Assembly: GCA_000165425.1 (NCBI GenBank)
Contig: CT868025.1
Coordinates: forward strand, 62,001 to 126,000
Direction of reading: 5' to 3'
DNA length: 64,000 nt
Source of the DNA: Paramecium tetraurelia
Lineage: Eukaryota
Shown here: positions 2,367-49,572 of the stretch, piece after piece
Layout of the letters: each line of letters opens with the position of its first letter
Numbering within the stretch: the stretch's first letter is position 1
The notes under the pieces: model-generated
What the model was told of the DNA's origin: nothing
The model's input: only the letters and a program-made list of their open reading frames with translations
The model's database searches: none
Program-made: the position numbers and the translations under genes

Positions 2367-5300
2367 TCAATCTTGTGGGGCCTCGATGGGTTATTAATCT
2401 GTAATGTTTGCTTTAAAGAACTCGTTGTCTACTTTTTGATTTCTAGCAGCCATAAGCTTAGCCAATTTAAGTTTCTTATAATAAAGGAGGGCGGCAATTA
2501 TCAATGAAACTCCGACAACAGAACAAACAACAGCTACAACGATGGTGACTGTTGCAGAACTATTTTCAGATCTCTTGATAGATTTCTAGATAGTTCCTGG
2601 ATTGGTAGAATTGTTATTTCCATTATTTGAGGTATCTTGTTGATTTACTCCTTCGTCAGTAACTAGTACAATATCATCGTCATTATTTGAGGAGTTACCA
2701 TTACCATTGTTATTGTTATTGTTATTATTGCCATTATTGTTATTGTTATTGTTATTACCACTATTGCTTCCTTATCCATTGTTATTGTTTGTATTGCCTC
2801 CTGGAACTAAAATGATTTCTAAAAGATATGAATTATAATATTACCTGATGTTTATTCAGTGCTCTTGAAATTAAGTTCTGAAATTGAAGAAATACTAGAG
2901 GATTCATGTTTGAGACCAACAACTCCTAATTGTTACAACTCTTCTGAAACTCCCAAGGATTCTAATTTGCTAGCCATTTCAGCAAGTCTTGATTAGGATT
3001 ATTTGCCATCAGTAGTACCAATATCAGCAGAATCTGCAATACCCCAATCAATAACAACCGATGAAGTTGTGGATTCGTCTAAAAATCTTCTTCTGTATTT
3101 CTTGGTTCCAATGATGAAATAGTTGTAAGGATCTCCTCCCAATTGTGCTCTTGCATATTATAGGAACTTATCTCCAAAGAATTCTGATGTTGTTATTTCA
3201 AGTCTTGTTGAAACTTAAAGAGTATTCTTCAATGCTATTCTAATCTTGCAATCCAATTTGCCTGTCAACACAAAATGAATAGTTCTATTTTCAAAGAAGT
3301 AATTATTGGCTCCACATTGATTAGTCATTGTCATGAGATCATGATGCTTATTATTAGTTGTAAGTCCAGGTTACACAACTTTATTATTGACCATGACTTA
3401 GATAATTTATGGAACAGAGAATTGCCATTTCAAGATGACCCAATCTTCTGGACTACCTGCCTCTGATCTCTTTGATAACCAATACTCAGAAGTGGTTGGG
3501 TTCATACCAGCATTTGTCATATTGATCACTGTATTCACTGACACTAAACTGACAAATTTGGATTCCCTCAAGTTTAATGGTTCAGGACCATCCCAATTCC
3601 ACTCTGCAAAACTGTTAATTTCATTAAAGAACAATCCGTCGGTCAATTTGATTGGTGAATACAATCTCTTGTTATAGTCTGCAGCAGTACTCATAAACAT
3701 CAAAATAGTAGCCTATCTGCCTGGACACCAATATCCATTCCAAGATTCTTGTCTTGAACAATAAGTGACATTTGGTCCAAAGTATGTGTTATTACCAATA
3801 CCTTGTCCGATTTATCCAAAGAAGTGGCCAGTTTAATCTTCTATCAAAAAGTTGATTTATCCTGTGCATAAAAATGATCCACACCCTCCAAACCATCCTA
3901 ATTTACCTGCATCTGGATTTCTAGATTTGTACAATAGAGCATTAAATTCACAATTAGTGCATGGAGAGTTTACTAAGTAATGTTGTCCTGTCATATCATG
4001 TGCAGCATGGTGTTATCTGAATGCAGCATTATTCTAGCATCTTGGGATGTTATCATAGGTTAATCTAAAGTTATGGAATTCAACATTTGTTAAGTAAACC
4101 TTGAGATCAACTCTTTAGACTGTACAAATTGTATCAAATGCTGAAGATGGTTTACCTGAAATAGGAGGGAAAGCTGATGAAGATAGAGAACCCATTTGAA
4201 TACCCATACTTCCCTAGCAGTTAGGATTAAGAGAAGCTGAATAGCATTTGACACAATCGGGTCTAGCCAAGGCTGAAATGAATATATTATTTAGCTTCAT
4301 CTTATTCTCTTATATGCTGTTAGGAGCAGGCTTCAAAGCTATTCCTCTGTCATTCTCCACCACAATTGATTTCTCAAGTTAAATCTATTCACTGACAACT
4401 GCATACATAATACCAACTTCACTGTGATGAGCGTATAATCCTTATATGTATGTGCACTTTCCTTCTGGGTCTTATCTGACACCAAAGCAAGCTAGTATTG
4501 TTCCTGAACAATGATTATTATAGAAGGATGATTAATATGCATCTGAACATTTACTTGCCATCACGAAGAAACCTGTATCTTATGATCCTTATCCGACATT
4601 TCCAGATACATCAACAATATCTCTTGTCATTTAAGTTGGTGATAATTCATCCATGTAAACAAAGTTACCAAATACTGCCCAATTAGCAAGGCCACCTTCG
4701 TTTAATATTCTCTTTTTAACATAGATCAATGCATTATTTTAGAATTTCACATATTAACTGTTATTAATCTAAACCAAAGCCTTGATACCAGTAAAGAATA
4801 TGTTATTCTTGATTGTAATGTATTAAGAATTTTAGATTGTCATCAACATACCTGTAGTATCATGGAATGAGCAACCAATAACTTCACTTGGAGTCTTAAT
4901 GATCTCACTATTAAGATTTCTAAAATCTAACCCACTTCTTTATGTATCATATTGACCACAATTGTTAAATTCTACACCATGTAAAACAGTGTATCCTCTT
5001 CTTGGGAATCCTAAATTAGCTTCAGGTTCTTCGAATTGATAAATCAAGACTCTACATCCTAAACCATGAACACTAGGTCCTCCTTCAATCTTAATCTTTC
5101 TAGTTAAATGTCCAACAACTGCTCTCATATCTAATTGTCCAATTCCAGGTTTATCAATAGTTACTGATGGAGCTCCATAGTGATCAAATTCAAGGGCTTG
5201 ATTTAATGTTATAACACATCCAGAAATGGCTGCTATTGATCTCTTTTCTCTTTATTCAGGGTCACTACCTGATGGACCAAATACTATTTCATCACCAACA

Positions 5301-8300
5301 GCCCAATCAGCACATTCAGCTACAGTAATAGTGGTTGCACCAGCATCAGCATATGCAGCTAATCTAGTCCATACTGTTCCAGGTGGCTTTGAGTATAATT
5401 CCATAGCTCTTGTGACAGCAAGTACTTTATTACCAACATCTAGATTAGCATCAATTACTAATGGATTATCTCCAAATTCTCCATTCAATACAATGTTAAT
5501 CTTTCCAGGGAATGGATTAGTTGAATTACCAGCCAATAATTTTCCTGATCTAACCCAGATTCTCTCTGCTTCCAATTTAGTTGATGCTCTTCTCTCATCA
5601 AAAATTAAAGATCCCAAAATAGTTAAATTAACAAGTTTAGGAGGATCTACATCCAAGATAACTTGATATGCTCCTTATACAATGGGACTATCTCCTTCAA
5701 CTGGTACTTTATTATCTATCCAAGTAGCAGGATCACTCCAATATCTATATCCATCTTCTTATGGTACATCTCCTAAACTATCGCATTCTTCTCTGCAAAT
5801 AACTCCTCTGACTTCAACATATTCATATTACTTCTTATTCTTACCAGACAAACAAAGGAAGAACAATTTGTTTGTTCTATCATTAAACCAATCACCTTAA
5901 TTACAAGTCTTAGTATTTGGAATCTATTCCAATTTTGTGTAATTTACTGGGAATTATCCTCCAATGTTTCTCATGATATCAAATGTTTCCCTATTGGCAG
6001 AGTAGTTAAATCTAAGAATAACAGCATCATCATTTTAATTGAAGTATGGAGATCCAAAGATACCCATGCTTAATGGATCACTTGCTCCAAATTTGAAATG
6101 GACATTATAAGTGAAACCAGTTGCAAATACACTTGCAAAAGAGAATTTAACGTCTTTACTCTTCTTTATAATTTTCATTGTTTCTCCTTCTATGTATTTG
6201 CTCTCGTCAATATTAGCATCCATTTTGAGTGCAATATTAGTACTGTCCAATCTATATAATTTCATATCAACTCCTGAGAAATCTTAATCTGGGGTAGGAT
6301 TATTAACCAAAACATCTCTTATTGTGACTTAATTCATAGCACAAATGATAGAATTATCCCAAAAATCTTCTGGATGGTTAACACATCCTGGAATTCCATC
6401 AATATGCTTCTTATATGGGATAATATAGGCACCTCCTGACACTCCTGAAATTGAACCATCTTAATCCCAGAAGATTTCTCTTCTATGTTTCTACCAAAAG
6501 ATACGATTAGCTGTATCAGAATGATATGCTTTGACATTAAAGAATTAGGTATTCTTACCTCCCTATACCCATAATTTCATATTCCAACATACAGAGCATG
6601 ATTCAATTAAAGCAGGTATTACTTCCATAATTATAAATTCTGATATTTTTAGCTAAAAATCCATTTGTTCTTGGAACTACCATTGCTCTTGATCCATCAT
6701 AGTAAGTATCATCTGGATTTGCATTATGATTTGATTTACCAATGATTACTGCATTATCCAAGACTGCTCCTTCAGTTGAGAAGTTACCTTTATGAGCCTA
6801 GAAACCTGCAAATTTGGAATCAGCAATCATAATGTCCTTGAAGTAGATGTTACCCAATTCTTCTCCTAAAACACCACATTCATTATTTTTCCATGTATAG
6901 AATTTTTCGAAAACTGCTTAAATACTTGGGTTATCTAAGTATGGCTAATCATTTGACCAATTAGCTGGATCGTTACAAGGGAACTTTCTTGGGGCCAATT
7001 AGAAGATACGAAGACCAAATCTACCATTTGAATGTGAAAAATTGTCCTTAAACTCAAGTATATTTAATCCTGGAGGACAAATATCTGAAGTAGCTGATGG
7101 ACCATCTGGATTGGTTTTAATTTCATACCAAAATCCATACCATTCTGAACCTCCTGATCTATTTCTTCTTACAATATTCTATGGATTTGTAACCCAAAAA
7201 GTAGCCACTGTAATATCAGTTTATAACATGATCCAACTTTATTTGGTGCTTGCAACAAGATTATCTTCAACGACATTGTTTGTTTCAATACCATCTTCAA
7301 AGAATATGGCATGTCCAAAAGTATTATAGCATACATTCTTCTAAACTTTCAAATAATGAACACCATGAATAGTCAAACAACGAGCATAACAATCATGAAT
7401 AGCATTACCAACAACATATGATTCATCTACTTCTCCATTCAAGTGGAAATGAACTGGATATCTACCAATAATTCTTGGTTAACCACCATATCTGAATTCT
7501 GCATATGATATTTTACCAACGGCTCCTTTCTCAGCTCTTCCATGAATCATCAAATGATAACCATATTTCAATTCTGATTATTCACCTTGAATAACAATAT
7601 TTCTAGTCAATAAACCAACTTCAACTTTCATAGGGAATGAATCGGTTTCAAAAGTTTCAACATCTGAATAATGTTGATAAGTAAGTGGTTAATCAAGAGT
7701 TAAAGTCTTTTTATCAGCACTAACTGCTGTAATGTATCTTTTTTCACTTTGCATGTGTTCAACTTCACTGGAAGTAATAACAATTTATTCTCCAACTTAC
7801 CAGTCTACTGCATCATCTACTGTAATTTGAGTTGCTCCAACTGATGCTGTACTTGATAATAATGTCCAAGTTGGAGTTCTTTCTTTACCATGAATAGTTA
7901 ATTAACATTGATGGCATCCCAAAACTTTGTTACCCATAGCAGGCATTTAAGTATCTTCTTCAACTCCATATAGGGTAATCTATACATTGTGTTAATGAGC
8001 CACTAATTCTGTTCCTATATTGAATTTTCCTTCTCTAATAACAATAAAATGAGCATCCAAAGATGTATCTACTTCATCAGAGAATGTAAGTGTTCCTTCA
8101 ACTAAGACTTGCATCATCTTAGGAGTTTTAACATCAACAATCAAAGTTTATCCAGCATTAACAATAACTGAATCTCCATCTCCTGGATATTCATATCCAC
8201 CCCCAAGTATTGATATCTGACCATTTGGTTGCATAAATGAATTATTTGTTATTAACTGCTAAATTTCCATTAACTCTAACTTAAAATACTCCATTTAATT

Positions 8301-11300
8301 GAGTTTATTCTAGATCTTTGACTCCAGTTTTACAGACAATTTAGGTTGTTGAAACACTCTAAATTGCACATGTGACTCCATCTATAGTTACTGTAGTTTA
8401 TCCATTTACAAATCCAGTACCAGTAATTGTAATAACTGCTTCTTCTGTAAATCTGCCTGTAGCTGGACTGACAGCATTAACAATAGGAACACTAGATGAG
8501 GAGTAACTAACAGCATTTGATACTGTACCAAGAGATTATCCATTTACTGAGATTTCTGCATTACATGAAGTTGGAACTGAATATGCATTATTACTATTTG
8601 ACAATATCCAACCTTTCAATTCAATTTCAGCTAATTAGCATGATGATCCAGTTGATCCTCTTGAATCAAACAATCTGACTGCTTTGATTCCTGAGATATC
8701 AGTTTAAGGAACATAAATGTTCCAACCTGTATGCACTGTTTAATCAACAGTTAACAAAGTCTACCAATTAGTGCCATCAGTTGTATATTAGAATACTGCA
8801 TCTTTCAATAAAATTGCTTATTTGTCAATTCTTGGCATGTATCTTAATTAATGTAATTTCAAAACTCTACTTGATCCAAAGTCAACTTAGACATAACAAT
8901 TTGAAGCAGCACTAGAAGTATAATAAGTTGATTAGAGTAAATCAAAGAATTTAGAAACTGAGGTTGTTGAATCAGCTAATAATGTGACTTCTGATGGTTT
9001 AATATATCTTGCAGGTTCTGATAAAGCAGTATATTAACTTAAAACTGAAGATGTCAATAATTTTGGAGTTTCACATGATAGTGTTGTGTATGTTGCACTT
9101 GTAATTGGGCAATCAAATCCACACAGTTTGACTGAATTTTATTCATTTACTGTATCGAAACCAGTTCCTGTAAATGTAACAGTAGCACCACCAGCATAGG
9201 ATACTTATGGATTAGTAGAAGTTGGTGCAGCAGCACTAACAATTAATTTTTATTTAGTAACATCACTGATGTATGCATATTTATTATCAACTAACAAATT
9301 AATTGAATAAACTCCTGCAGCTAAATTTGAAAAGGTAGTTGTTACTGAGGTATCAGATAAAGCTGAAGATGTTCCAGCTATCTTATGACCCATATGTTCT
9401 AATGTGACTACAATTGTAGTGCCAGTAAGTCTGCTACCAGCAAATACAAGAACAACATTTCCTGCTGTAGCTAAGTAAGCCTTTTGGGTAGAGTCATAGG
9501 AGGCACCAGTAATTGCTGTGAATAATGGAGAGCTAGTAGATGGGCTTATAGTCAAAGTAAATGTTGCTGTAATAGGAACTGCTGAATTATTTTCAGAAGG
9601 TAATTGTGAGAGTGTCACTGCTGCAGATGTGGCTGATTGTCTAGCCAGTCTACATTTAATTTAAACAGTTGAGACTACTTATAGTTCAGTACAGTCTGTT
9701 GTTCCTACTTTTACACTTGCAGATTAATCCGCATTAAATCCAACTCCGTTAATTGTCAATACTTATCCACCAATAACAGCAGTATCAATAGATGTGATTT
9801 TTAGTCCAATTACAGTAACCCAAATCTTATCTGCATAACCATTCTTAGTTAAAACATAAGTTTTAAATTATCCTTAAGGTAAATTTGGAATTGTGTAAGT
9901 GAATGATGATCCAGAAATTGTTGCAGTTACTTTTTAGGTAACTGGACCTTTGAAAACAATAAAAACTGTATCTGTTAATCCTGTTCCAGATAATGTTTCT
10001 GTATCTCCTGGGGCATAGGTCTTTTATTAACTTAAAACTAAATCAGCAGATGATAACATATCTCTTCTTGGTGATTTACCAAGGTTCAAAATATGATTGT
10101 GGCCTTATTTCTTTGATTCCTCTGTCCATAAAAATCTCTTTCTCTAGACTAATTTTTAATAATCTGGTTTTTAATGATCAGACTCTGTCAAAATTCTTGA
10201 TCCTGTGTATTAAGTGCTGGATGCTGGATAGTTTTCAATTGTTGGAGTTAATGTATTATCATAAGTAAATAAGCAATTATTTGTGGTATCAAGACATGTT
10301 GATTCAAGAGTTACTTGTACTGTTACAACAACTAACTAAGCTTATTAGTTATAGTATTCAAATTTTGGTGGAACGGTGCAATAAATGACTTCAGATGTAA
10401 ATCTAGTTTCATCAATTTCACAGAACCAATTAATAGCCTGACCAACAAATACAATGGTTTCTCCCAAAACAAAGTTGGATCCTGTTATTTTAATAACTGT
10501 TCCTCCTGCCTCTGATCCTTTTGCTTAGCTAGTACCATCTTCCAAGGTAACACTAGTGACTGGAATGATGTATTTAAATAAGTTATCATTCGAATTGGCA
10601 TATGAATTACCATAATTTTTTCTAGTAATAGTAACTCTATAGTCACCAGGCATTCCTCCTCTTAAATATACTTGAATTGAAGTATCTGTTACAGAAATAA
10701 CTTTAGCATTATAAGATTTAGATCCAACTAAGGTAACTTTGATATCATCAACAACAGTTCCGAAATTGGTTCCTGTGATTGTCATTTCACCTTTGAATAC
10801 TGGAGTTTTTGAATTGAATTCTAAGGATTACACTTAGATTCTTAAAGCATCATCGTATGAAAATAAGCTACTAGTGACTGTTTTTTCATTGAATGATAAG
10901 GAAATTGCTCCAGTTCCCCCACTTGCTTTCTTTGGTGTAACAAAAATAATCTAGGTATTAGTAATTGATAATGGATGAACATCTTAGCCATCAATTTAGA
11001 ATGTAAAATCTCTATTTAGATTTTTAGGGAATCCAGTACCAGTAATAGTAATAGTTGTGCCTCCATCTGGTGATCCTGTTGCTGGTAAAATTGAAGATAT
11101 AACCAAACCAATATTTTCTCCAGTTACTCCTGCTTCAATTTTAGAGAAACCAATTGCTTTATGATGTACAGCTGGCACTTAATTATCACCAGCTTCCTTA
11201 ATGTTTTATGAATTCAATTATTCTAAAGTACAAGTGATTGAGTAAGGTGATGTGAAGGTGGAGAATTGAATATTTGTGCAATCAGCTCCTTCAAATGAAA

Positions 11301-13881
11301 TATCTAAGTCTGTCTTAGTTATTGATAAACCAGCTCCTTGTGCTAGAGTTAATGATAATTGAGATCCGGTTACAGAGTAAGCCGTTAAGCTTTGGTGTCT
11401 TTTCATCACTTAAAGTGAAATCACATGCGTCAAATTATTCGCAACCAGCTAAAATTTATTCTGTTTCTACAACATTATTTACTTTTTATTGATATTCAAC
11501 TTCAACTTAAACTTAAGGATGTTAACTATAAGTAAAGAGTAATTTCATTGGGTATAGGTTCAAATAATAAATTAGTACTATCTGGTATGGGTTTAGTAAC
11601 AGCAGCAGTTACATCTCCATTTCCTGAAACAAGAACATGGGTTGAAACTGAAAAGTCAGTTAATTAATCGACGTTAGATCTTAAAACAATGAACCATTTC
11701 CATCCATCTTATGCTCTTCCAACTGTCCAAACAAATGGTCTTTCTCCAGTAATTCTTTCAACATTATCAGCAATTAATGATGTTGATGCATCAAAAGGTA
11801 AATCATAAACATTAGCAGACACTTAGAATAAATTGTCAATTCCATTAATAGTCATTGTTAATTAGAATGTTCCACTGATTGGATCAAGTGGTTCTTGAGT
11901 TCTTACAATATCTTTAACAGGAGTTCCTCCATTTAAAGAGGGTGATACAAACGTTGGAAGTGCTCTATAATTAGTAGAACCTCTATGAGAATCAAATGTA
12001 ATTGTATATTTATATCCAGCAAATGTTGTGGCAGCATCATCTAAAGCAGCTCCAGTATTATCTAACTTAGTAGCTATAACAGTTACTAAATAACCTGCTC
12101 CACAATTTTAGATTGCATTTTTAATAGCATTTGCATTGGCATTTGGTACAATATCTCCAGTAGTGTATGAGTAATATAAAGTAGTTTGTGGTTTAGTCTT
12201 AGTACCATAAGTGAATTAAAGTTAATACTTACCTGCTAATAAAGTATTTCCAACAGAATTATATAAAGTGATTTCAATCACTTCTTTAACTGGTGTGTAA
12301 GATGTTGAAATTTAATAGACACTATTTAATGAGTTCGATTTTCTAGTGGCACTCTCAACTTCCATAGAAAGTGTAAGATATCCAGTTGATCCTCCATTAA
12401 GATGATAAGCTTCAATATAATAAAATTCTCCTTATTATAAAGCAACAGTTTCAGATATAGATTTGATGTTATAGGAATAAGTCAAATATTCATACCAATA
12501 GTTTCTATAAGGATTCCATCCACTTGCAGCTGTTGCTGTATCTGGTCTAATTGGTTATTTAACTTAAGTTGTTTAAATAAAGAATTAAGCACAGTCATCT
12601 GAAGCAACATAGAATCTATAATTTCCAGTAAATGGTGCTTTTAAGAAACCTCTAAAGTATTATCCATAATATTCTCCAAATTAATTTTAGACATCAGGTT
12701 CTGGATAAATACCATCAAATTAAATTCTACTGTTTAATTAAGCTTTGTTAGTAATGATTTATGTTCTAAATGAAGCACAATTCAAATTTAATCCAGAAAC
12801 ATCCCATCTGGTATAATGTAATCCACTTCCTTAGATGAAAACAGAACTCTCAGTAGCATCAGCAAGAGCTGGTAAATTAGTTAGTTTTGGTATTTTGGCT
12901 TTGATTGTAGTTGGAGTTGATGATAACACTTAAATAGTTTCAGATTAGCCTGAAATTTTAACTGTGTTCTCAGATGGAATTGGACTAAATCCATATCCAG
13001 ATATTTCGATAATTTATCCTTCTGGTGATGCGAAATTTGTATTAATCTCTGTAATAATTGGAAGAACTCTGAAAAATATTAATTATATAAATACTTTGAG
13101 TCGTATGTTCTGTCAGATTAAACTCTTTTTTATTTAACTCCTACGTCATTAGTTTGATATCCACTTTATGATTTAATAGTATAATCATAGTAACCAGCTT
13201 TGATTTCAGCTGAAACTTAGCATACAACTTGATCATCCCAGAAATTGATCTCATCTGGATACTGATCTTGAACTGTGAATCTGTCACATCTGTTAGCTCC
13301 CATGAATTGTCCCTCTAGTAATTAAACAACTGAGCTAGATACTGCCCACTGGGCTCTCCAATAACTTAATGTTCTTGGATAATTTGATCTTGGAGTCACA
13401 TAAAATAATTTTGGTGTATAGTATTAAGAGTAAGTATAAAGGCATTTTGAAGCACATATTGAGTCTGGTTTATCCAATACCTTAACAACTATTTATAAGC
13501 TAGATAAGTTATTGTCATCTGGATCAGGCTTTGTTGTTTTGCAGTTCATAAACAATCCATTTACTCCCTTATCGGAGATTATGCATGGGTATTTACCAAT
13601 ATATACTGCATTATTGCTAGCAGTCTGATCTAATCCTTGAACCTAGTGGAATATTTTTTTTTCTTACTTTCATATAAATTGTTGTTCCTCCCATTACAGA
13701 ACCTTAAAGGCTCGAATTTTCTTATCCTAAAACAGTTGAGGCAGCTAAAATCACGATTGAATCAGAAGTTGAATCTGTTGAAGAATCCATCATCATGGCT
13801 ACATTAATATTTGATTTGATTACCATCAACATTATTGCTAAGTAGCAAAAGTAACATATTCGTAAAAGCAATGATAAACAT
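2367..13881 (-). CDS. Giant fibrocystin-L/PKHD1L1-like type I membrane protein, copy A (signal peptide, IPT/TIG repeats, PA14-like, discoidin-like, 2x G8, PbH1 beta-helix, Asn-rich linker, TM)
   Basis: Starts MFIIAFTNMLLLLL. Contains IPT motifs (GSPDGGTTITITGTGF), PA14-like YFRGFLKAPFTGNYRFYVASDD, G8 motifs (PKLVNLTILGSLIF, VGNKVLAV) and GRYPVHFH, then TM VTIVVAVVCSVVGVSLIIAALLYY and TGA at 2367-2369. Tiny introns lie near 13800-13825, 13645-13670, 13069-13094 and 2820-2845. Several apparent +1 insertions interrupt the frame. Confidence 0.9.
2690..2792 (-). repeat. AAT/AAC trinucleotide low-complexity tract encoding an Asn/Gly-rich juxtamembrane linker
   Basis: (ttg/tta)n runs on the + strand, in frame within copy A. 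The counterpart in copy B (~49140-49260) is Asn/Gly/Ser-rich but not alignable. Confidence 0.85.
4440..13432 (-). repeat. Left arm of a ~9-kb near-identical inverted repeat (partner 38515-47520)
   Basis: The reverse complement matches 38515-47520 almost base for base in every block compared by eye. The ORF track shows twin peptides, e.g. 4940-5128(-) equals 46827-47015(+), and 5226-5666 matches 46289-46729. Confidence 0.95.
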
Positions 13882-13922
13882 GTTAATGTTTTATAAAAAA
13901 TAATGATCTTCTACAAAACTTT

Positions 13923-13950
13923 AGAGCACTTTAATACCCCTTAATATCTA
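13923..13950 (-). promoter_or_regulatory. Candidate proximal promoter element shared by both fibrocystin-like genes
   Basis: The reverse complement TAGATATTAAGGGGTATTAAAGTGCTCT ends 41 nt before the ATG. It resembles TAGATATTTTCTGGGGGTAATAAAGGCTCT at 37980-38009, although the surrounding upstream DNA does not align. Confidence 0.5.
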
Positions 13951-15096
13951 GATTAATCTCAGTTTTAATTTATAACATACCCTAATAATTTACTGTATCT
14001 TGTCGATATATTAGGAGGAAAACAAGATTAATTGCTTATAACAGCGATTTTCTCCTTATTAGAGTTGACTTGATACTATTACAAAATTTTTAAGAAACAT
14101 AATTTAGCCCTTTTTCAATATTTGTGTCTAAAACCTTTTTTTTCTTTTTTATTAGGTTTACTAGCATACAGATGATAATCAAAGCCTGATTTAAGCAATT
14201 AAAAAAAGGAAGAGCATGGAAAAATAGTATGAGATTAATTGGAAATGTGGTGAATTTCTTATCAGAAAAATCATGTTAAATACAGCTACACATTTATATG
14301 ACTCATAGTATTTGTGCTCTTTCACTAATGAAATAAGCTAAGAAATTTCTGGAATAATAAAAGTATATAATGTAAACAAAATTCTTCATTTTTTTCCATT
14401 TTTAGGCTGAATAAATTTAGTCAGCTTCTCTGCAGTAAGAATAGGTGTTCAACCCGTTTTTCAAGTTATGAATGATTTGGAAATTTTTTTTTGTTATTTA
14501 CTAATCATATACAATTAATCAAATTTCTTTTAATGAACGAATGGAAAATGCAGCACCTGATGAAGATTAGAACTTTTGGGTTAATCAAGGTAGCTTTTAA
14601 TACTTAAGGATTTAAGGTTTAAAATTGATTATTGATATGATGAAATGATACTTTGAATATTTTAGCTATTATTGCTAGTTAAAATTTAATATATAGTAAA
14701 GAGATTTGAAACCATAATATAGTCTCATTTGTGATGATATATTAGGAATACTTAAATAAATACTAAATATTTATTAGAAGTTGATATTAGAAGGAATATC
14801 TTATTTCTCAAGTTAGATATATAAATATCATATTATTAATAAAGCTTAGATACATTTTTAGTGTTATAATTTTTCTCCCTTCAAATGGTCACCAGGAGCA
14901 CTAAAATTGGTTATCCTCAACATTTGCAAACCGATTCCCCATTTTTATCGATTATATTAAAAAGTAATTTTGAATTAATTTATTTTAATAAATAAAATCT
15001 TAGACATATATATCAACAACCTTTTCTTAATAAAGAATGAATATAATTATACAATAGTTCCTTTAATTTAAATAAATATTGTAAACAATATATTTT

Positions 15097-16491: not shown

Positions 16492-16507
16492 AGTTTATTT
16501 TACAATA

Positions 16508-21576: not shown

Positions 21577-21624
21577 TATGATTAATTAATTGATTGCATT
21601 ATCAAAGAAATATATAGAAGTCTA

Positions 21625-34851: not shown

Positions 34852-34912
34852 TTTTATATTATAGAATTAAGCTAAAATTTTAGTCAGAATAGTTAAAACA
34901 ATTATAATTTAA

Positions 34913-36020: not shown

Positions 36021-36583
36021 ATACATATATATATATAATTATATCCTTAAAATTAATTGTTATTACGAGTATGAATTTATAAAGTAAATTAAAGTTTCAA
36101 AATAGAATATAAGAAGGTATTATATGAATATCCAAAAATAATATGTATTTTTTAAATATTTCATACTCCTTTTATAGAGACTTAACATTTTTGTTAAATT
36201 TATTCCTGAAATGTAATTGAACTATTGGGGTAAATATTTCATGAGAAAATCCAAATTCAAATAATTAAAATTATTACACAAATCTATTATATTAATACTT
36301 CTAAGATTATTTTTAAACTTCATCAAAACAATTATATGATTTATTTTTAGATTATATAAAAATAAAATTATTCATATTTTTTAATTCTTTTATACTTAGG
36401 ACAGTCTTTTAAAAAGTTTATTAATATTAGGAAATTCTAGAATTTTTAATGAGTATTTGACCAACTTTAGCTAAACCAAAATGATTACCATTAACAAATG
36501 CTTAGATTTAAGAGTTAAGATTTGATATAAAAAGAACAAAGAATTTTTATAATGTATTAATTATCTATTCTAATTTAATAAAA

Positions 36584-37357: not shown

Positions 37358-37979
37358 AAAATTACAATTTATTTTTATAAGAAGAATATCATATCATATA
37401 TTTAATACACTATAAATAATTCTTACTAGAGTATATCAAAAACAATAAATGATTCATGAATGAAGGTAATTCATAAATATTTATGGAAATATTGACATAC
37501 TAACTTAAATTAATGTAAACATTTCAGTTATTATGCTAGATATAGAATTTTTTTATAATGCAGTTAGAAAACTTAAAGTGTATTTTAAAATGATTTATTA
37601 ATAAATATTTTTTATTTTATAAAAATTAATATAAATTAATATAAATTTATTTAACCGCAATTTTTCTATTTTATACTACAATGGGATAATTATTACAAAA
37701 ATATTAAAATTTTCCATGCTTAGATGATTTAAAATATGGATATTATATGCTCTAGTTTTCTCTTTGAAAGAATGGAACAGCAATTATTGATTTCTAGAAA
37801 ATTTAGGGTGGATTAAAAATGGGTACATCAAAAATAATTTAGTAATGATATAACAGTAAAGAAGTGTTACGATGAGCTGATAATTGAATCAAAATTAGCC
37901 TAGCATTATTTAATTTTACACCTACCTTCAAACTGTTATTAATTTATATTTATACTTTAAATTTTTGATATTTTTAATT

Positions 37980-38009
37980 TAGATATTTTCTGGGGGTAAT
38001 AAAGGCTCT
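37980..38009 (+). promoter_or_regulatory. Candidate proximal promoter element shared by both fibrocystin-like genes
   Basis: TAGATATTTTCTGGGGGTAATAAAGGCTCT ends 49 nt before ATG 38059; counterpart at 13923-13950 (minus). Confidence 0.5.
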
Positions 38010-38058
38010 TTAGATATTATGAAAAAGACTTAATAATTTTATTTCCAAAAAAAAAAAT

Positions 38059-41000
38059 ATGTTTATCAGCACTCTATCGACTATGCTATTAATGCTTTTG
38101 ACCAATTCATCAGAAGGTTAAAAATGAGTAGTATATTTTAGCAATGATGGATGCAACAATGGATTCAACAACCGATGCAGTTGTAATTCTTGCTGTTTCT
38201 ACAGTTTTAGGTAAAGAAAACTCTACTCCTACAGGTTCCATAGTGGGAGGCACAACATTATACATGAAAGTAATAATATCATATAAGAATTATAGGTTTA
38301 AGGATTAGATTAAACAGCTAGTAACAATGCTGTATATATTGGAAAGTATCCTTGTATTATTTCCGATAAGGGAGTCAACGGATTGTTCATGAACTGTAAA
38401 ACAACAAAACCAGATCCAGATGACAATAACTTATCTAGCTTAGAAATTGTTGTTAAGGTATCAGGTAAACCAGACTCTGTTTGTACATTTAGTGGTCCAT
38501 AATGTCATTTCACATACTCTTAATACTATACACCAAAATTATTTTATGTGACTCCAAGGATCAAATTATCCAAGAACATTAAGTTATTGGAGGAGCCCAA
38601 GTGGGCTGTATCTAGCTCAGTTGTTTAATTACTAGAGGGACAATTCATGGGAGCTAACAGATGTGACAGATTCACAGTTCAAGATCAAGTATCCAGATGA
38701 GATCAATTTCTGGGATGATCAAGTTGTATGTCAGGTTTCAGCTGAAATCAAAGCTGGTTACTATGATTATACTATTAAATCATAAAGTGGATATCAAACT
38801 AATGACGTAGGAGTTAAATAAAAAAGAGTTTAATCTGACAGAACATACGACTCAAAGTATTTATATAATTAATATTTTTCAGAGTTCTTCCAATTATTAC
38901 AGAGATTAATACAAATTTCGCATCGCCAGAAGGATAAATTATCGAAATATCTGGATATGGATTTAGTCCAATCCCATCTGAGAACACAGTTAAAATTTCA
39001 GGCTAAGCTGAAACTATTTAAGTGTTATCATCAACCCCAACTACAATCAATGCCAAAATACCAAAACTAACTAATTTACCTACTCTTGCTGATGCTACTG
39101 AGAGTTCTGTTTTCATCTAAGGAAGTGGATTACATTATACTAGATGGGATGTTTCTGGATTAAATTTGAATTGTGCTTCATTTAGAACATAAATCATTAC
39201 TAACAAAGCTTAATTAAACAGTAGAATTTAATTTGATGGTATTTATCCAGAACCTGATGTCTAAAATTAATTTGGAGAATATTATGGATAATACTTTAGA
39301 GGTTTCTTAAAAGCACCATTCACTGGAAATTATAGATTCTATGTTGCTTCAGATGACTGTGCTTAATTCTTTATTTAAACAGCTTAAGTTAAATAACCAA
39401 TTAGACCAGATACTGCAACAGCTGCAAGTGGATGGAATCCTTATAGAAACTATTGGTATGAATATTTGACTTATTCCTATAACATCAAATCTATATCTGA
39501 AACTGTTGCTTTATAATAAGGAGAATTTTATTACATTGAAGCTTATGATCTCAAATGGAGCATCAGGCGGATATCTTACACTTTCTATGGAAGTTGAGAG
39601 TGCTACTAGAAAATCGAACTCACTAAATAGTGTCTATGAAATTTCAACATCTTACACACCAGTTAAAGAAGTGATTGAAATCACTTTATATAATTCTGTT
39701 GGAAATACTTTATTAGCAGGTAAGTATTAACTTTAATTCACTTATGGCACTAAGACTACACCACAAACTACTTTATTTTACTCATACACTACTGGAGATA
39801 TTGTACCAAATGCCAATGCAAATGCTATTAAGAATGCAATCTAAAATTGTGGAGCAGGTTATTTAGTAACTGTTATAGCTACTAAGTTAGATAATACTGG
39901 AGTTGCTTTAGATGACACTGCAACAACGTTTGCTGGATATAAATATACAATTACATTTGATTCTCATAGAGGTACGACCAATTATAGAGCACTTCCAAAG
40001 TTTGTATCATTCTCTTTAAATGGAGGAACTCCTGTTAAAGATATTGTAAGAACTCAAGAACCACTTGATCCAATCAGTGGAACATTCTAGTTAACAATGA
40101 CTATTAATGGAATTGACAATTTATTCTAAGTGTCTGCTAATGTTTATGATTTACCTTTTGATGCATCAACATCATTGATTGCTGATAATGTTGAAAGAAT
40201 TACTGGAGAAAGACCATTTGTTTGGACAGTTGGAAGAGCATAAGATGGATGGAAATGGTTCGTTGTTTTAAGATCTAATGTTGATTAATTAACTGATTTT
40301 TCAGTTTCAACCAATGTTCTTGTTTCAGGAAATGGAGATGTAACTGCTGCTGTTACTAAACCCATACCAGATAGTACTAATTTATTATTTGAACCTATAC
40401 CAAATGAAATACTCTTTACTTATAGTTAACACCCTTAAGTTTAAGTTGAAGTTTAATACCAAATAAAAGAAAATAATGTTGTTGTAGAAACAGAATAAAT
40501 TTTAGCTGGTTGCGAATAATTTGAAGCATGTGATTTCACTTTAAGTGATGAAAAGACACCAACATTAACAGCTTACTCTGTTAGCGGATCTCAATTATCA
40601 TTAACTCTAGCACAAGGAGCTGGTTTATCAATAACTAAGACAGACTTAGATATTTCATTTGAAGGAGCTGATTGCACAAATATTCAATTCTCCACCTTCA
40701 CATCACCTTACTCAATCACTTGTACTTTAGAATAATTGAATTCATAAAACATTAAGGAAACTGGTGATAATTAAGTGCCAGCTATACATCATAAAGCTAT
40801 TGGTTTCTCTAAAGTTGAAGCAGGAGTAACTGGAGAAAATGTTGGTTTGGTTATATCTTCAATTTTACCAGCAACAGGTTCACCAGATGGAGGTACAACT
40901 ATTACTATTACTGGTACTGGATTCCCTAAAAATCTAAATAGAGATTTTACATTCTAAATTGATGGCTAAGATGTTCATCCATTATCAATTACTAATACCT

Positions 41001-44000
41001 AGATTATTTTTGTTACACCAAAGAAAGCAAGTGGGGGAACTGGAGCAATTTCTTTCTCATACAATTAAAAAACAGTCACTAGTAGCTTATTTTCATACGA
41101 TGATGCTTTAAGAATCTAAGTGTAATCCTTAGAATTCAATTCAAAAACTCCAGTATTCAAAGGTGAAATGACAATCACAGGAACCAATTTCGGAACTGTT
41201 GTTGATGATATCAAAGTTACTTTAGTTGGATCTAAATCTTATAATGCTAAAGTTATTTCTGTGACAGATACTTCAATTCAAGTATATTTAAGAGGAGGAA
41301 TGCCCTGGTGACTATAGAAGTTACTATTACTAGAAAAAATTATGGTAATTCATATGCCAATTCGAATGATAACTTATTTAAATATATCATTCCAGTCACT
41401 AGTGTTACCTTGGAAGATGGCACTAGCTAAGCAAAAGGATCAGAGGCAGGAGGAACAGTTATTAAAATAACAGGATCTAACTTTGTTTTGGGAGAAACTA
41501 TTGTATTTGTTGGTTAAGCTGTTAATTGGATCTGTGAAATTGATGAAACTAGATTCACAAGTGAAGTCATTTATTGCTCTGTTCCACCAAAATGTGAATA
41601 CTATAACTAATAAGCTTAGTTAGTTGTTGTAACAGTACAAGTAACTCTTGAATCAACATGTCTTGATACCACAAATAATTGCTTATTTACTTATGATAAT
41701 ACATTAAATCCAACAATTGAAAACTATCCAGAATCCAGCACTTAATATACAGGATCAAGAATTTTGACAGAGTCTGATCATTAAAAACCAGATTATTAAA
41801 AATTAGTCTAAAGAAAGAGATTTTTATGGACAGATGAATCAAAGAAATAAGGCATCAATCACATTTTAAACCTTGGTAAATCACCAAGAAGAGATATGTT
41901 GTCATCTGCTGATTTAGTTTTAAGTTAATAAAAGACTTATGCCCCAGGAGATACAGAAACCTTAACTGGAACAGGATTAACAGATACAGTTTTTATTGTT
42001 TTCAAAGGTCCAGTTACCTAAAAAGTAACTGCAACAATTTCTGGATCATCATTCACTTACACAATTCCAAATTTACCTTAGGGCTAATATAAAACTTATG
42101 TTTTAACTAAGAATGGTTATGCAGATAAGATTTGGGTTACTGTAATTGGATTAAGCATAACATCCATTGATACTGCTGTTATTGGTGGATAAATATTGAC
42201 AATTAACGGAGTTGGATTTAATGCGGATTAATCTGCAAGTGTAAAAGTAGGAACAACAGACTGTACTGAACTATAAGTAGTCTCAACTGTTTAAATTAAA
42301 TGTAGACTGGCTAGACAATCAGCCACATCTGCAGCAGTAACACTCTCACAATTACCTTCTGAAAATAATTCAGCAGTTCCTATTACAGCAACATTTACTT
42401 TGACTATAAGCCCATCTACTAGCTCTCCATTATTCACAGCAATTACCGGTGCCTCCTATGACTCTACCCAAAAGGCTTACTTAGCTACAGCAGGAAATGT
42501 TGTTCTTGTATTCGCTGGTAGTAGACTTACCGGCACTACACTTGTAGTCACATTAGAACATATGGGTCATAAGATAGCTGGAACTTCTTCAGCTTTATCT
42601 GATACCTCAGTAACAGCTACCTTTTCAAATTTAGCTGCAGGAGTTTATTCAATTAATTTATTAGTTGATAATAAATATGCATACATCAGTGATGTTACTA
42701 AATAAAAATTAATTGTTAGTGCTGCTGCACCAACTTCTACTAATCCATAAGTATCCTATGCTGGTGGTGCAACTGTTACATTTACAGGAACCGGTTTCGA
42801 TACAGTAAATGAATAAAATTCAGTCAAACTGTGCGGATTTGATTGCCCAATTACAAGTGCAACATACACAACACTTTCATGCGAAACTCCAAAATTATTG
42901 ACATCATCAGTTTTAAGTTAATATACTGCTTTATCAGAACCTGCAAGATATATTAAACCATCAGAAGTCACATTATTAGCTGATTCAACAACCTCAGTTT
43001 CTAAATTCTTTGATTTACTCTAATCAACTTATTATACTTCTAGTGCTGCTTCAAATTGTTATGTCTAAGTTGACTTTGGATCAAGTAGAATTTTGAAATT
43101 ACATTAATTAAGATACATGCCAAGAATAGACAAATAAGCAATTTTATTGAAAGATGCAGTGTTCTAATATACAACTGATGGCACTAATTGGTAGACTTTG
43201 TTAACTGTTGATTAAACAGTGCATACAGGTTGGAACATTTACGTTCCTTAAACTGATATCTCAGGAATCAAAGCAGTTAGATTGTTTGATTCAAGAGGAT
43301 CAACTGGATCATCATGCTAATTAGCTGAAATTGAATTGAAAGGTTGGATATTGTCAAATAGTAATAATGCATACTCAGTTCCAACTTCATGTAATGCAGA
43401 AATCTCAGTAAATGGTTAATCTCTTGGTACAGTATCAAATGCTGTTAGTTACTCCTCATCTAGTGTTCCTATTGTTAATGCTGTCAGTCCAGCTACAGGT
43501 AGATTTACAGAAGAAGCAGTTATTACAATTACTGGTACTGGATTTGTAAATGGATAAACTAACAGTAACCATAGATGGAGTCACATGTGCAATTTAGAGT
43601 GTTTCAACAACCTAAATTGTCTGTAAAACTGGAGTCAAAGATCTAGAATAAACTCAATTAAATGGAGTATTTTAAGTTAGAGTTAATGGAAATTTAGCAG
43701 TTAATAACAAATAATTCATTTATGCAACCAAATGGTCAGATATCAATACTTGGGGTGGGTATGAATATCCAGGTGATGGAGATTCAGTTATTGTTAATGC
43801 TGGATAAACTTTGATTGTTGATGTTAAAACTCCTAAGATGATGCAAGTCTTAGTTGAAGGAACACTTACATTCTCTGATGAAGTAGATACATCTTTGGAT
43901 GCTCATTTTATTGTTATTAGAGAAGGAAAATTCAATATAGGAACAGAATTAGTGGCTCATTAACACAATGTATAGATTACCCTATATGGAGTTGAAGAAG

Positions 44001-47000
44001 ATACTTAAATGCCTGCTATGGGTAACAAAGTTTTGGGATGCCATCAATGTTAATTAACTATTCATGGTAAAGAAAGAACTCCAACTTGGACATTATTATC
44101 AAGTACAGCATCAGTTGGAGCAACTCAAATTACAGTAGATGATGCAGTAGACTGGTAAGTTGGAGAATAAATTGTTATTACTTCCAGTGAAGTTGAACAC
44201 ATGCAAAGTGAAAAAAGATACATTACAGCAGTTAGTGCTGATAAAAAGACTTTAACTCTTGATTAACCACTTACTTATAAACATTATTCAGATGTTGAAA
44301 CATTTGAAACAGATTCATTCCCTATGAAGGTTGAAGTTGGTTTATTGACTAGAAATATTGTTATTCAAGGTGAATAATCAGAATTGAAATATGGTTATCA
44401 TTTGATGATTCATGGAAGAGCTGAGAAAGGATCAGTTGGTAAAATATCATATGCAGAATTCAGATATGGTGGTTAACCAAGAATTATTGGTAGATATCCT
44501 GTCCATTTCCACTTGAATGGAGAAGTAGATGAATCATATGTTGTTGGTAATGCTATTCATGATTGTTATGCTCGTTGTTTGACTATTCATGGTGTTCATT
44601 ATTTGAAGGTTTAGAAGAATGTATGCTATAATACTTTTGGACATGCCATATTTCTTTGAAGATGGTATTGAAACAAATAATGTTGTTGAAGATAATCTTG
44701 TTGCAAGTACCAAATAAAGTTGGATCATGTTACAAACAGATATTACTGTGGCTACTTATTGGGTTACAAATCCATAAAATATTTTAAGAAGAAATAGATC
44801 TGGAGGTTCAGAATGGTATGGATTTTGGTATGAAATTAAAACCAATCCAGATGGTCCATCAGCTACTTCAGATATTTGTCCTCCAGGATTAAACATCCTT
44901 GAGTTTAAGGATAATTGGTCACATTCAAATGGTAGATTTGGTCTTCGTATCTTCTAAATGGCACCAAGAAAGTTCCCTTGTAACGATCCTGCTAATTGGG
45001 TCAATGATTAACCATACATTGATAATCCAAGTCTTTAAGCCGTTTTTGAAAAATTCTATACATGGAAAAATAATGAATGTGGTATTTTAGGGGAAGAATT
45101 GGGTAACATCTACTTCAAGGACATTATGATTGCTGATTCCAAATTTGCCGGTTTCTAAGCTCATAAAGGTAACTTCTCAACTGAAGGAGCAGTCTTGGAT
45201 AATGCAGTAATCATTGGTAAATCAAATCATAATGCAAATCCAGATGATACTTACTATGATGGATCAAGAGCAATGGTAGTTCCAAGAACAAATGGATTTT
45301 TAGCTAAAAATATCAGAATTTATAATTATGGAAGTAATACTGCTTTAATTGAATCATGCTCTGTATGTTGGAATGTTAAATTATGGGTATAAGGAGGCAA
45401 AAATACATAATTCTTTAATGTCAAAGCATATCATTCTGATACAGCTAATCGTATCTTTTGGTAGAAACATAGAAGAGAAATCTTCTGGGATTAAGATGGT
45501 TCAATTTCAGGAGTGTCAGGAGGTGCCTATATTATCCCATATAAGAAGCATATTGATGGAATTCCAGGATGTGTTAATCATCCAGAAGATTTTTGGGATA
45601 ATTCTATCATTTGTGCTATGAATTAAGTCACAATAAGAGATGTTTTGGTTAATAATCCTACTCCAGAACAAGATTTCACAGGAGTTGATATGAAATTATA
45701 TAGATTGGACAGTACTAATATTGCACTCAAAATGGATGCTAATATTGACGAGAGCAAATTCATAGAAGGAGAAACAATGAAAATTATAAAGAAAAGTCAT
45801 GATGTTAAATAATCATTTGCAAGTATATTTGCAACTGGTTTCACTTATAATGTCCATTTCAAATTTGGAGCAAGTGATCCATTAAGCATGGGTATCTTTG
45901 CGTCTCCATACTTCAACTAAAATGATGATGCTGTTATTCTTAGATTTAATTACTCTGCCAATAGGGAAACATTTGATATCATGAGAAACATTGGAGGAAA
46001 ATTCCCAGTAAATTACACAAAATTGGAATAGATTCCAAATACTAAGACTTGTAATTAAGGTGATTGGTTTAATGATAGAACAAACAAACTATTCTTCCTT
46101 TGCTTGTCTGGTAAGAATAAGAAGTAATATGAATATGTTGAAGTCAGAGGAGTTATTTGCAGAGAAGAATGCGATAGTTTAGGAGATGTACCATAAGAAG
46201 ATGGATATAGATATTGGAGTGATCCTGCTACTTGGATAGATAACAAAGTACCAGTTGAAGGAGATAGTCCAATTGTATAAGCAGCATATTAAGTTATCTT
46301 AGATGTTGATCCTCCTAAACTTGTTAATTTAACTATTTTGGGATCTTTAATTTTTGATGAGAAAAGAGCATCAACTAAGTTAGAAGCAGAGAGAATCTGG
46401 GTTAGATCAGGAAAATTATTGGCTGGTAATTCAACTAATCCATTCCCTGGAAAGATTAACATTGTATTGAATGGAGAATTTGGAGATAATCCATTAGTAA
46501 TTGATGCTAATCTTGATGTTGGTAATAAAGTACTTGCTGTAACAAGAGCTATGGAATTATACTCAAAGCCACCTGGAACAGTATGGACTAGATTAGCTGC
46601 ATATGCTGATGCTGGTGCAACCACTATTACTGTAGCTGAATGTGCTGATTGGGCCGTTGGTGATGAAATAGTATTTGGTCCATCAGGTAGTGACCCTGAA
46701 TAAAGAGAGAAGAGATCAATAGCAGCCATTTCTGGATGTGTTATAACATTAAATCAAGCCCTTGAATTTGATCACTATGGAGCTCCATCAGTAACTATTG
46801 ATAAACCTGGAATTGGACAATTAGATATGAGAGCAGTTGTTGGACATTTAACTAGAAAGATTAAGATTGAAGGAGGACCTAGTGTTCATGGTTTAGGATG
46901 TAGAGTCTTGATTTATCAATTCGAAGAACCAGAAGCTAATTTAGGATTCCCAAGAAGAGGATACACTGTTTTACATGGTGTAGAATTTAACAATTGTGGT

Positions 47001-49572
47001 CAATATGATACTTAAAGAAGTGGGTTAGATTTTAGAAATCTTAATAGTGAGATCATTAAGACTCCAAGTGAAGTTATTGGTTGCTCATTCCATGATACTA
47101 CAGGTATGTTGATGACAATCTAAAATTCTTAATACATTACAATCAAGAATAACATATTCTTTACTGGTATCAAGGCTTTGGTTTAGATCAATAACAGTTA
47201 ATATGTGAAATTCTAAAATAATGCTTTGATTTATGTCAAAAAGAGAATATTAAACGAAGGAGGTATTGCAAATTGGGCAGTATTTGGTAACTTTGTTTAC
47301 ATGGATGAATTAGTACCAACTTAAATGACAAGAGATGTTGTTGATGTATCTGGAAATGTCGGATAAGGATCATAAGATACAGGTTTCTTCGTGATGGCAA
47401 GTAGATGTTCAGATGCATATTAATCATCATTCTATAATAATCATTGTTCAGGATCTGTGTTGGCTTGTTTTGGAGTCAGATAAGACCCAGAAGGAAAGTG
47501 CACATACATATAAGGATTATCTGCATATCATAGTGGAGTAGGTATAATGTACGCAGTTTTTGCAGAGGAATTACGTTTGGAGAAAGCATTGGCTGCTGAA
47601 AACGACGTAGGTATTGTCTTAAGAGGTGCTCCTTAAAGCATTTAAGACAATTAGATGAAGTTTTCAAATAGTTTTGTGAGTGCATTTGTGAGACCAGAAT
47701 GTCCTAAGTGTTATTCTGCAACTTTGAATCCTTATTGCAGTAATGTCTATGGAGTTAAGATGGGTACATTATCTTCAACTGCTTTCCCTCCTATTTCGAC
47801 TAAACCTTCAGACAATTTTGATTCTCTTTGCACCATTCAAAGAGTTGATCTAAGAGTTTATGTCAATAATGTAGAATTCAATAATTTCAGATTATCTCAT
47901 GACTCTGCTCCTAGATGTGGTAAAAATGCAGTATTCAAGACAAATCACAAGGCACATGATTCTACAGGATAGCACTATTTGGTTAATTCACCTTGTACCA
48001 ACTGTGAATTTGATTCCATTCTTTATTAGATGAGAGATTCTGATTGGTCTAAATTAGGATGGTTCGGAGGATGTGGTTCATTTGAATGCACAGGTCAGAA
48101 AAATGTCTTGGTTGAAGATCAAACAGGTCACTTCTTTGGACAAATTGGGTAGGCCATAACCAATAATACATACTTTGGACCAAACGTAACTCATTGTATT
48201 AGAAAGAACACTTGGAATGGATATTGGTGCCCTGATAGAAAGATTACAGTTTTGAGTTTTATGAGTGTCGCAGCTGATTACAACAAGAGACTGTATTCTC
48301 CAATCAAGTTGACTGATGGATTATTCTTCAATGAGATTAATAGTTTCTTTGAATGGAATTGGGATGGACCGGAACCTTTGAATTTGAGAGAATCTAAATT
48401 CGTAGCCTTGGTGTCAGCCAATACAGTTATTAATATGAGCAATGCAGGTATGAACCCAACTGCATCTGAATATTGGCTATCAAAAAGAAGTGAGGCTGGA
48501 AGTCCTGAAGATTACGTAATTTTGAAATGGCAGTTTTCAGTGCCTTAAATTGTTCAGGTATAGGTTGGCAATAAAGTCATATTGCCTGGATTGACCACAA
48601 ATTCTAAACATCATGATTTATTGACTATGACTGACTAATGTGGAGCCAATAACTACTTCTTTGAAAATAGAACTATTCATTTTGTAGTCAATGCAAAACT
48701 TGGATGCAAAGTTAAGATTTCACTTAAGAATACACTCCAAGTTTCAACAAGACTAGAAATAACAACAGATGAATTCTTTGGTGATAAATTCTTGCAATAC
48801 GCAAAAGCTCAATTAGGCGGAGATCCTTATAATTACTTTATTATTGGAACCAAGAAATCAACTAGAAGATTTTTGGATGAAAGCGTCAGCTAATAAGTTA
48901 CCGTTGATTGGGGAATAGTTGATAGTGCTGAAATTGGAACAGAAGCATCCTCTAATTCTTAGTAGGTTCTTTCAGAATTAGCCAGCAAATTAGAATCCTT
49001 CAATCCTCCCCCTGAAATTGGTACAGTGTTAGAACAATCAACCACAATCACTGCTATTAACAAATTAAACTTCGCAAGCACTGAAGTTACATCATGTATT
49101 TTTATTAATCATAATTTTATTAGTGACTCCAACCTCTCCTAGTGATGGTACCAATACAAACAATGGAAGCAATAATAATAATGGAAATAGTGACAATAGC
49201 AACAACAATGGTAACACTGGATCAACAGGTGGAAATACTAACAATAACTCCACTTAATCTGATAATACAGAAATTGTATTGACTACTGATGAAGGTGTTA
49301 ATCAATAGGATCTTAGCGATAATATCGATAGCAATACATCAGGAACAATTCAAAAAGCTATCAAAAAGACTGAATCATCATCTTCCACAGTGATCATTGT
49401 TGTTTCAGTAATCTGTTCAGTAATTGGCGTTTCACTCCTTATCTCAGGATTGTTATATTACAAGAAGGTTAAATTAGCCAAATTGATGGCTGCTAGAGCC
49501 CAAAAGGTAGATAATGAATTCTTCAAAGTGAACATCACTGAACAATAACTACAACACTAACAACAAGAATGA
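38059..49572 (+). CDS. Giant fibrocystin-L/PKHD1L1-like type I membrane protein, copy B
   Basis: Starts MFISTLSTMLLMLL. Same architecture and apparently the same four intron positions as copy A (~38118-38142, ~38270-38295, 38857-38882, ~49096-49123). TM VIIVVSVICSVIGVSLLISGLLYY; TGA at 49570-49572. Several apparent +1 insertions. Confidence 0.9.
38515..47520 (+). repeat. Right arm of the ~9-kb near-identical inverted repeat (partner 4440-13432)
   Basis: Direct comparison with the reverse complement of 4440-13432. Confidence 0.95.

Follow-up and report, generated by a model that had tools for sequence, protein, structure and literature searches.

A 64,000-nucleotide stretch of Paramecium tetraurelia macronuclear DNA (assembly GCA_000165425.1, contig CT868025.1, positions 62,001 to 126,000 of the forward strand; hereafter the window) carries two giant paralogous genes, A and B, that read best as an ancient inverted pair whose core has been homogenised by recurrent, non-crossover gene conversion, with a probability of about 0.88. 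In this model, A and B would be inverted duplicates that arose before the recent whole-genome duplication of Paramecium. The two arms would rarely have undergone non-allelic recombination, which we place in the germline and take to have been resolved without crossover, and which would have overwritten the ~9-kb middle at least twice, an earlier round being recorded in related genes of other species and the latest having taken place in the P. tetraurelia lineage. Conversion would stop at about residue 134 and about residue 3120, so that two old end types survive. As a result, the cell would make two giant surface proteins of single-pass type whose outer parts are nearly the same and whose promoters, membrane-proximal domains and tails differ. 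Positions below are those of the window.

A and B share a core between diverged ends

By aligning the window against itself with BLAST, we found a single inverted match (2955-13956 versus 49000-37974; 92.5% identity over 11,056 columns) and an additional 67% match between the last exons of A and B. The ciliate code fits the reading frames of the window, and frames of 3,802 and 3,799 amino acids open once four introns per gene and a total of 13 single extra bases are taken out. The 5' ends of both genes face a 24,177-bp spacer, and the genes are transcribed divergently. Self-alignment and gene models thus bear out the inverted, outward-facing, head-to-head paralog pair described in an earlier note on this DNA. 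C-terminal pieces of A (P0037, CAK63318) and of B (P0036, CAK63336; 100% identical) are on record.

Within the core, the alignment of A and B spans 9,005 columns, with 8,746 identical, 243 substitutions and 16 gap columns (97.1% identity; 97.6% in the comparison that includes related genes). The cores had been called nearly identical, which is right, though they are not fully identical; the longest perfect run measures 504 bp. As computed from gene models with about 12 codons out of frame, synonymous divergence (dS) between A and B is 0.079 in the core (2,986 codons), versus 1.13 at the 5' end (132 codons) and 2.57, a saturated value, at the 3' end (674 codons), in line with the earlier observation that the ends differ at many synonymous sites. 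Likewise, the introns behave as had been described: only one of the four, the 26-nt core intron (13069-13094 and 38857-38882), is identical between the copies, while the three outside the core lie at positions common to A and B and differ in sequence. Since the ratio of nonsynonymous to synonymous divergence (dN/dS) is 0.16 in the core, the differences found there are real substitutions under purifying selection.

The edges of the core are fairly sharp, with patchy differences from about position 4730 of A preceding the 3' boundary. The 504-bp run may reflect either a more recent tract or a collapse in the draft assembly. Five of 11 type-specific core residues cluster at residues 2202-2311, in the same 500 bp that are the most diverged of the core (p 0.009 for the cluster and 0.002 for the divergence, both with a window size picked after looking). 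The cluster hints at selection, although these changes are conservative.

Core and ends have opposite ancestry

Cluster look-ups yielded two A-type genes, P0047 of P. octaurelia and its counterpart P0048/P0049 on another P. tetraurelia scaffold, as well as P0044, a B-type gene of P. sonneborni. At the C-end, identity is 92% between A and P0047 and 88% between B and P0044, compared to 69.5% between A and B, and the 5' end of A resembles P0047 (86%) more than B (75%). Over the core, A and B stand equally far from both outside genes (87-88%), and they are 84-88% identical to other family members. We then counted the sites supporting each pairing in the quartet A, B, P0047 and P0044 (given as A+B / A+P0047 / A+P0044) and obtained 2/10/2 at the N-end, 103/11/8 in the core and 0/123/2 at the C-end. 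Approximately unbiased (AU) tests on the protein sequences of six taxa rejected, for the core, the trees that group genes by type (p about 1e-64 or less) and, for the C-end (1.6e-51) and the N-end (0.015), the tree that joins A with B. Core and ends therefore give opposite trees, which upholds the earlier proposal of an old duplication with its middle homogenised by exchange between the arms. With silent sites and introns close in the core alone and segment trees discordant, these comparisons make concerted evolution by non-allelic gene conversion well supported.

Reading accession order as gene order, we observed that A-type CAK78475/74 lies near a second IFT172 gene (CAK78484) on another P. 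tetraurelia scaffold, and that P0047 and P0044 likewise lie near IFT172 copies. The position of A-type genes near second IFT172 copies suggests that they are genome-duplication partners of A and, as far as accession order reflects gene order, that both end types predate the recent whole-genome duplication. The IFT172 copies are 98-99.7% alike, too similar to place the P. sonneborni gene in a subgenome. A third paralog (P0001/P0038) joins the B type with 89-96% bootstrap, a position that the AU test does not separate from a basal one. This paralog is 74% identical in the core and B-like at the far C-end, and in P. octaurelia and P. pentaurelia it is separated by 170-180 accession numbers from the second copies of IFT172, on the same scaffolds.

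Table 1. Position and content of the parts of the A/B locus and its flank, in window coordinates.
Feature	Position	Strand	Description and basis
Gene A	13881 to 2367	-	3,802 aa in genetic code 6, 4 introns; fibrocystin-L-like single-pass surface protein; gene model, Pfam (TIG, G8, CEMIP beta-helix)
Gene B	38059..49572	+	3,799 aa, 4 introns; paralog of A; gene model, Pfam
Homogenised core of A	4440..13432	-	aa ~135-3120; 97.1% to B core, dS 0.079, quartet sites 103/11/8
Homogenised core of B	38515..47520	+	Identity, dS and quartet sites; unique-flank contigs end 30 bases inside in two DNA runs
A-type 5' end	13433..13881	-	Hydrophobic N-terminus, first ~134 aa; introns 13799-13823 and 13643-13667; dS 1.13 versus B
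B-type 5' end	38059..38514	+	Introns 38117-38141 and 38270-38295
A-type 3' end	2367..4439	-	Distal half of second beta-helix, membrane-proximal domains, Asn-rich stalk, transmembrane helix, tail; intron 2819-2844
B-type 3' end	47521..49572	+	Intron 49096-49123; boundary at B aa 3126, within second beta-helix
Core intron of A	13069..13094	-	26 nt, identical to B 38857-38882
Core intron of B	38857..38882	+	26 nt, identical to A 13069-13094
Longest identical run	7677..8180 (B 43775-44278)	-	504 bp; permutation p 0.02 on synonymous codons
Most diverged 500 bp of core	6798..7298 (B ~44658-45158)	-	32 differences; in first CEMIP beta-helix; scan p 0.002
Spacer	13882..38058	.	24.2 kb of unrelated single-copy genes: kinesin motor, RING, P-type ATPase, E2F/DP, TRAF-SPRY, others; Pfam
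IFT172	49665..54950	-	Flank outside the pair, orientation anchor; cluster look-up, tblastn

Homogenisation is old, rare and probably recurrent

By comparing the outside genes with each other, we found that the identity between P0047 and P0044 falls from 86% in the core to 68% at the C-end, a drop located at residues 3101-3125, as in A versus B. Because same-type pairs are as alike at the C-end as in the core (core versus C-end: 88% versus 92%, and 87% versus 88%), the C-end does not evolve faster within a type. Together with the shared drop, this points to an earlier homogenisation that ended at the same 3' boundary, and conversion thus appears to have recurred in at least two rounds. The 5' edge is looser, as P0044 is A-like around residues 119-133, unlike B. 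Selection on the two C-terminal types and a divergence too great for exchange are about equally probable as the cause holding the 3' boundary in place.

The core dS of 0.079 is about 13 times the 4-fold diversity reported for P. tetraurelia (0.006; PMC9206413), so that exchange is an evolutionary rarity rather than a frequent event; the earlier wording that the middle "is being homogenised" is not supported at any meaningful rate. With the rate and calendar of PMC4199370, this dS would correspond on average to about 1.5 billion divisions, or about 15 million years, on an uncertain scale. Over residues 135-1700, A and B differ by 2.9%, versus 8.0% for the sister-species pair P0047/P0048 and 3.2% for another family member between the same species. 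The last round would therefore be about as old as, or younger than, the split of P. tetraurelia and P. octaurelia.

Several observations weigh against recurrent conversion or limit what can be said of it. First, synonymous differences are evenly spread along the core (28 bins, chi-square p 0.19), so that one long event and many short tracts look alike, and type-specific core sites show no overall excess (11 versus 8 control sites). Second, no donor is singled out, with 21 core residues of A and 18 of B matching the outgroups. Third, the outside genes amount to two of A type and one of B type, the latter without a fixed subgenome. Protein searches (13, 7 and 4 proteins returned, the last four distant) and a representative search (150 proteins, without a close full-length relative) returned no true ortholog of A or B at the locus in sister species, and within-species homogenisation was therefore not observed in these. 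A P. octaurelia B model probably exists, as the accession numbers of the last spacer gene and of IFT172 leave room for one more between them. Exact look-ups of predicted open reading frames (ORFs) found 5 of 7, 0 of 7 and 2 of 10. Finally, GC content at 4-fold sites is 9% in the core versus 17-19% at the ends (stratified p 4e-5 and 4e-4), below that of all eight other window genes checked (13-37%). This is opposite to the raised GC of converted Paramecium ohnologs (PMC4199370) and nearer to the mutational equilibrium of 3-7% (PMC11334263).

For ciliates, the locus would offer an example of long-range intrachromosomal gene conversion that is both clean and datable. With 9 kb homogenised long after ohnolog conversion is thought to have largely stopped, and with the same 3' boundary kept over two rounds, it lends itself to asking what sets the borders of conversion, selection or a loss of homology. 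The pair also suggests that a fibrocystin-L-like protein on which little work exists comes in two old functional types, which differ only near the membrane and in their promoters.

Both copies are present in independent reads and expressed

We compared four of the 24 listed sequencing runs with the window over 37400-50200. In two DNA runs from different studies, contigs unique to B match with 0 differences, and the B-unique 5' contig stops in both at 38544, 30 bases into the shared sequence. At some sites the letters of both copies occur at about half depth, and the summed depth rises over the core. Among the best 40 of 300 rows (one, outside gene B, was dropped), 38 of 39 alternative letters are the letter of copy A, including 37 of 37 inside the core. 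In a poly-A run, sense transcripts span the core as well as the B-specific end, and letters of A predominate; since these transcripts carry letters of both copies, both genes are expressed. A small-RNA run gave 3 reads on the examined stretch. RNA interference or short-read mapping directed at the core cannot distinguish A from B. At 48050-48685, loose ends of RNA reads and of a contig resemble the 3' end of copy A yet differ from it, which suggests that the second P. tetraurelia A-type gene keeps and expresses a C-terminal part absent from the protein-search results.

All 12 frame-shifting indels, which amount to 13 extra bases, fall in the core, and the diverged coding ends are free of them. 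The extra bases lie at 38558-44651 and 6616-11542, nearly all lengthening a short run. All nine of those in B are missing from the contigs of at least one DNA run, and none of the best 40 of 300 rows shows any of the four of A inserted. The draft assembly is prone to insertions (10,339 insertions of 1-2 bases versus 929 deletions; PMC3464196). Because independent contigs lack them and the draft is insertion-prone, the frameshifts are probably draft errors, about five times denser here than average. Such errors probably split the public gene models of A and B, which are broken. Similarly, the neighbouring IFT172 gene (49665-54950, minus strand) is recorded in two pieces of 1,180 and 504 amino acids, when its relatives have 1,723-1,733, and its frame change near 51350-51444 is probably another draft error.

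Spacer orientation and alternative explanations

The earlier note had further proposed that crossovers in the core might flip the spacer. As an invertible switch, whether operated in the germline or in the developing macronucleus, the 24-kb spacer would yield genes with the 5' end of A and the 3' end of B, and the reverse, beside the parental forms. The arms permit this, being inverted and 97% identical over 9 kb with a 504-bp perfect run, in a species with very high meiotic recombination (420 cM/Mb; PMC13085455). In RNA, the 5' half of the core shows fewer B letters than the 3' half (best 40 of 300 rows, depth below 20), as expected of chimeras that join the promoter of A to the end of B; the selection of rows and the low depth explain this skew equally well. 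After a crossover, IFT172 would adjoin the opposite end of the spacer, and the N- and C-types would be uncoupled; conserved order and coupling therefore count against inversion, and both were observed. Spacer genes and then IFT172 follow in the same order in P. tetraurelia, P. octaurelia (CAD8177606, 613, 620, then IFT172 622), P. pentaurelia (CAD8172502, 516, 530, then IFT172 534) and P. primaurelia (CAD8107657, 643, 629, then IFT172 623), and P0047 is A-type at both its N and C ends while P0044 is B-type at both. The core divergence of 13 times the allelic diversity argues in the same direction. Orientation was read from accession order in related loci, which are not independent draws, and short-read scaffolding across a repeat can mislead, so that the agreement of the scaffolds of all four species is moderate evidence, and concerns scaffolds rather than molecules within a macronucleus. 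A Pfam scan of 46 of the 143 listed ORFs gave no match to recombinase families, and the 25 longest listed inverted repeats include no other long one. Thus, evolutionary inversion and the four receptor forms once envisaged find no footing in these scaffolds, and we regard the switch as quite improbable.

We give a similarly low weight to recombinase-free somatic crossovers that would flip the spacer on some macronuclear copies while the germline stays in one orientation; somatic molecules lie outside the scaffold evidence, the longest listed piece inside the core having 1,438 bases and no contig or read spanning the 9-kb core. Since the copy-specific N-terminus is only about 134 amino acids long, a flip would mainly swap promoters and little protein. 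If real, it would put each ancient C-terminal type under the promoter of the other and could tune the ratio of the two isoforms.

Among the explanations that keep the spacer in place, a single recent replacement, in which one event copied 9 kb over the other gene without recurrence, would account for the even spread of synonymous differences and the fairly sharp edges. It is unlikely, if slightly less so than the flips, as the 86% core versus 68% C-end identity of P0047 and P0044, with the same boundary, requires an earlier event, and as the diverged island and the long identical run suggest tracts of different age. An assembly artefact, in which the consensus of one copy took in reads from its partner, would gain from the poorer draft at this locus (12 of 12 frame-shifting indels in the core versus 2.6 expected from genome-wide insertion errors) and from a possible collapse of the 504-bp run. 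It is hard to reconcile with a dN/dS of 0.16, with independent B-unique contigs ending at 38544 without a difference, and with both letters at half depth under a raised summed depth. The contamination that the earlier note had named as an alternative is thus largely refuted by DNA contigs and RNA reads carrying the letters of both copies, and we consider an artefact very improbable. Even less credible is purifying selection alone keeping the middles of two old paralogs alike. The core does carry conserved G8 and beta-helix domains, but homogenisation extends to silent sites and to an intron, and other family members reach only 84-88% identity to this core. The silent-site contrast refutes such selection as the sole cause.

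A and B are fibrocystin-L-like proteins

In PKHD1L1-like proteins, multiple TIG repeats precede two G8 domains, a CEMIP-type beta-helix accompanies each G8 domain, and PA14 is a further domain of this fibrocystin-L / PKHD1L1-like group. By scanning A and B with Pfam, we found TIG repeats, two G8 domains and CEMIP beta-helices, that is the same architecture (compared with P0009), and weak PA14 and F5/8 type C matches. PA14 reaches 20.6 bits in B, for a cut-off of 24, and exceeds the cut-off only in the more distant paralog P0017. The Pfam set is that of an Aplysia protein named fibrocystin-L. Identity to animal proteins is 23-24%; TIG matches number 6 versus 14, and the weak F5/8 type C match is added. 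A and B are thus fibrocystin-L-like, for which a ciliate function is hypothetical; a role as a glycan-binding coat or receptor may be envisaged.

Hydropathy suggests a signal-peptide-like N-terminus (19-residue means of 1.47 and 1.04), one C-terminal transmembrane helix near residue 3740 (2.97 and 2.86; peak of A at residue 3745) and a short tail. With a length of about 3,800 amino acids and a predicted single-pass type, A and B are fibrocystin-L-like proteins and not classical Paramecium surface antigens; no PF01508 match was found in 12 A/B ORF pieces, nor in P0047 and P0044. A predicted model of B residues 2686-3650 (mean predicted local distance difference test score of 80) best matches the TMEM2 ectodomain (E 4e-24, TM-score 0.56), followed by polysaccharide-binding beta-helix enzymes. 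The 3' edge of the core, at B residue 3126, is residue 441 of this model and falls inside a continuous run of strands, not between domains.

Comparison with known systems

Among human genes, RHD and RHCE stand in opposite orientation. In these and in the red/green opsin genes (PMC3924837), as in A and B, conversion erases differences between nearby old duplicates, introns included, while one region keeps its differences and its ortholog grouping, which gives a divergence peak. In the human pairs this region is small and under selection, unlike A and B, where both ends did (~134 and 680 amino acids) and any selection is hypothetical. Conversion of Paramecium ohnologs (McGrath et al. 2014, PMC4199370) is the same process in the same species, with paralogs closer than their age predicts. 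Ohnologs lie on different chromosomes and converted mostly soon after duplication, with a median longest identical stretch of 108 bp. In contrast, A and B are intrachromosomal and older than the recent duplication, with 9 kb homogenised long after and a lower silent GC.

Two other systems involve ciliate membrane or surface proteins. Tetrahymena MTA/MTB (PMC3608545) are also head-to-head membrane-protein gene pairs in which recombination can join segments, by programmed joining and deletion among several incomplete pairs. Unlike them, A and B are two complete genes with 24 kb of unrelated genes between them and no sign of somatic rearrangement in the available short reads. Paramecium variable surface antigens (PMC4235209) are likewise large surface proteins with intrachromosomal duplicates and proposed conversion. 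These antigens have the cysteine-periodic repeats of PF01508, unlike A and B, which have other domains and whose conserved part is the middle.

A search by title and start of abstract, with subscription papers, ParameciumDB and supplements outside its scope, found nothing on this locus, and no paper with "Paramecium" and "PKHD1L1" together or with any of the four gene numbers. The supplements of PMC4199370, with their lists of converted and tandem genes, may include it. Gene conversion being already known, what is new is this pair, notable for its size, age and repeated boundary.

Other features of the window

In run X15, contigs end at 38786, 48343, 37947 and 49486 with 75-255 or more letters left unaligned. 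At 38786, where the end comes after a TA within the core, it could mark a germline-limited insertion. Another loose contig end, in one DNA run, lies at 45147. At position 49993, in IFT172, 19 of 37 RNA reads and one DNA run have G for A, which is either a strain difference or due to reads of a second copy. The IFT172 copies of P. sonneborni (P0207/P0217 and related set) are 99.7% identical and group together, which suggests conversion there too.

Beyond the pair, positions 59909-63237 (minus strand) encode a sodium/proton exchanger followed by a cyclic-nucleotide-binding domain, probably in one gene, which we take to be SOS1-like. At 327-1847 (plus strand) lies an intronless membrane RING-finger gene which, unlike most neighbours tested, is alone in its 90% cluster and may be fast evolving.

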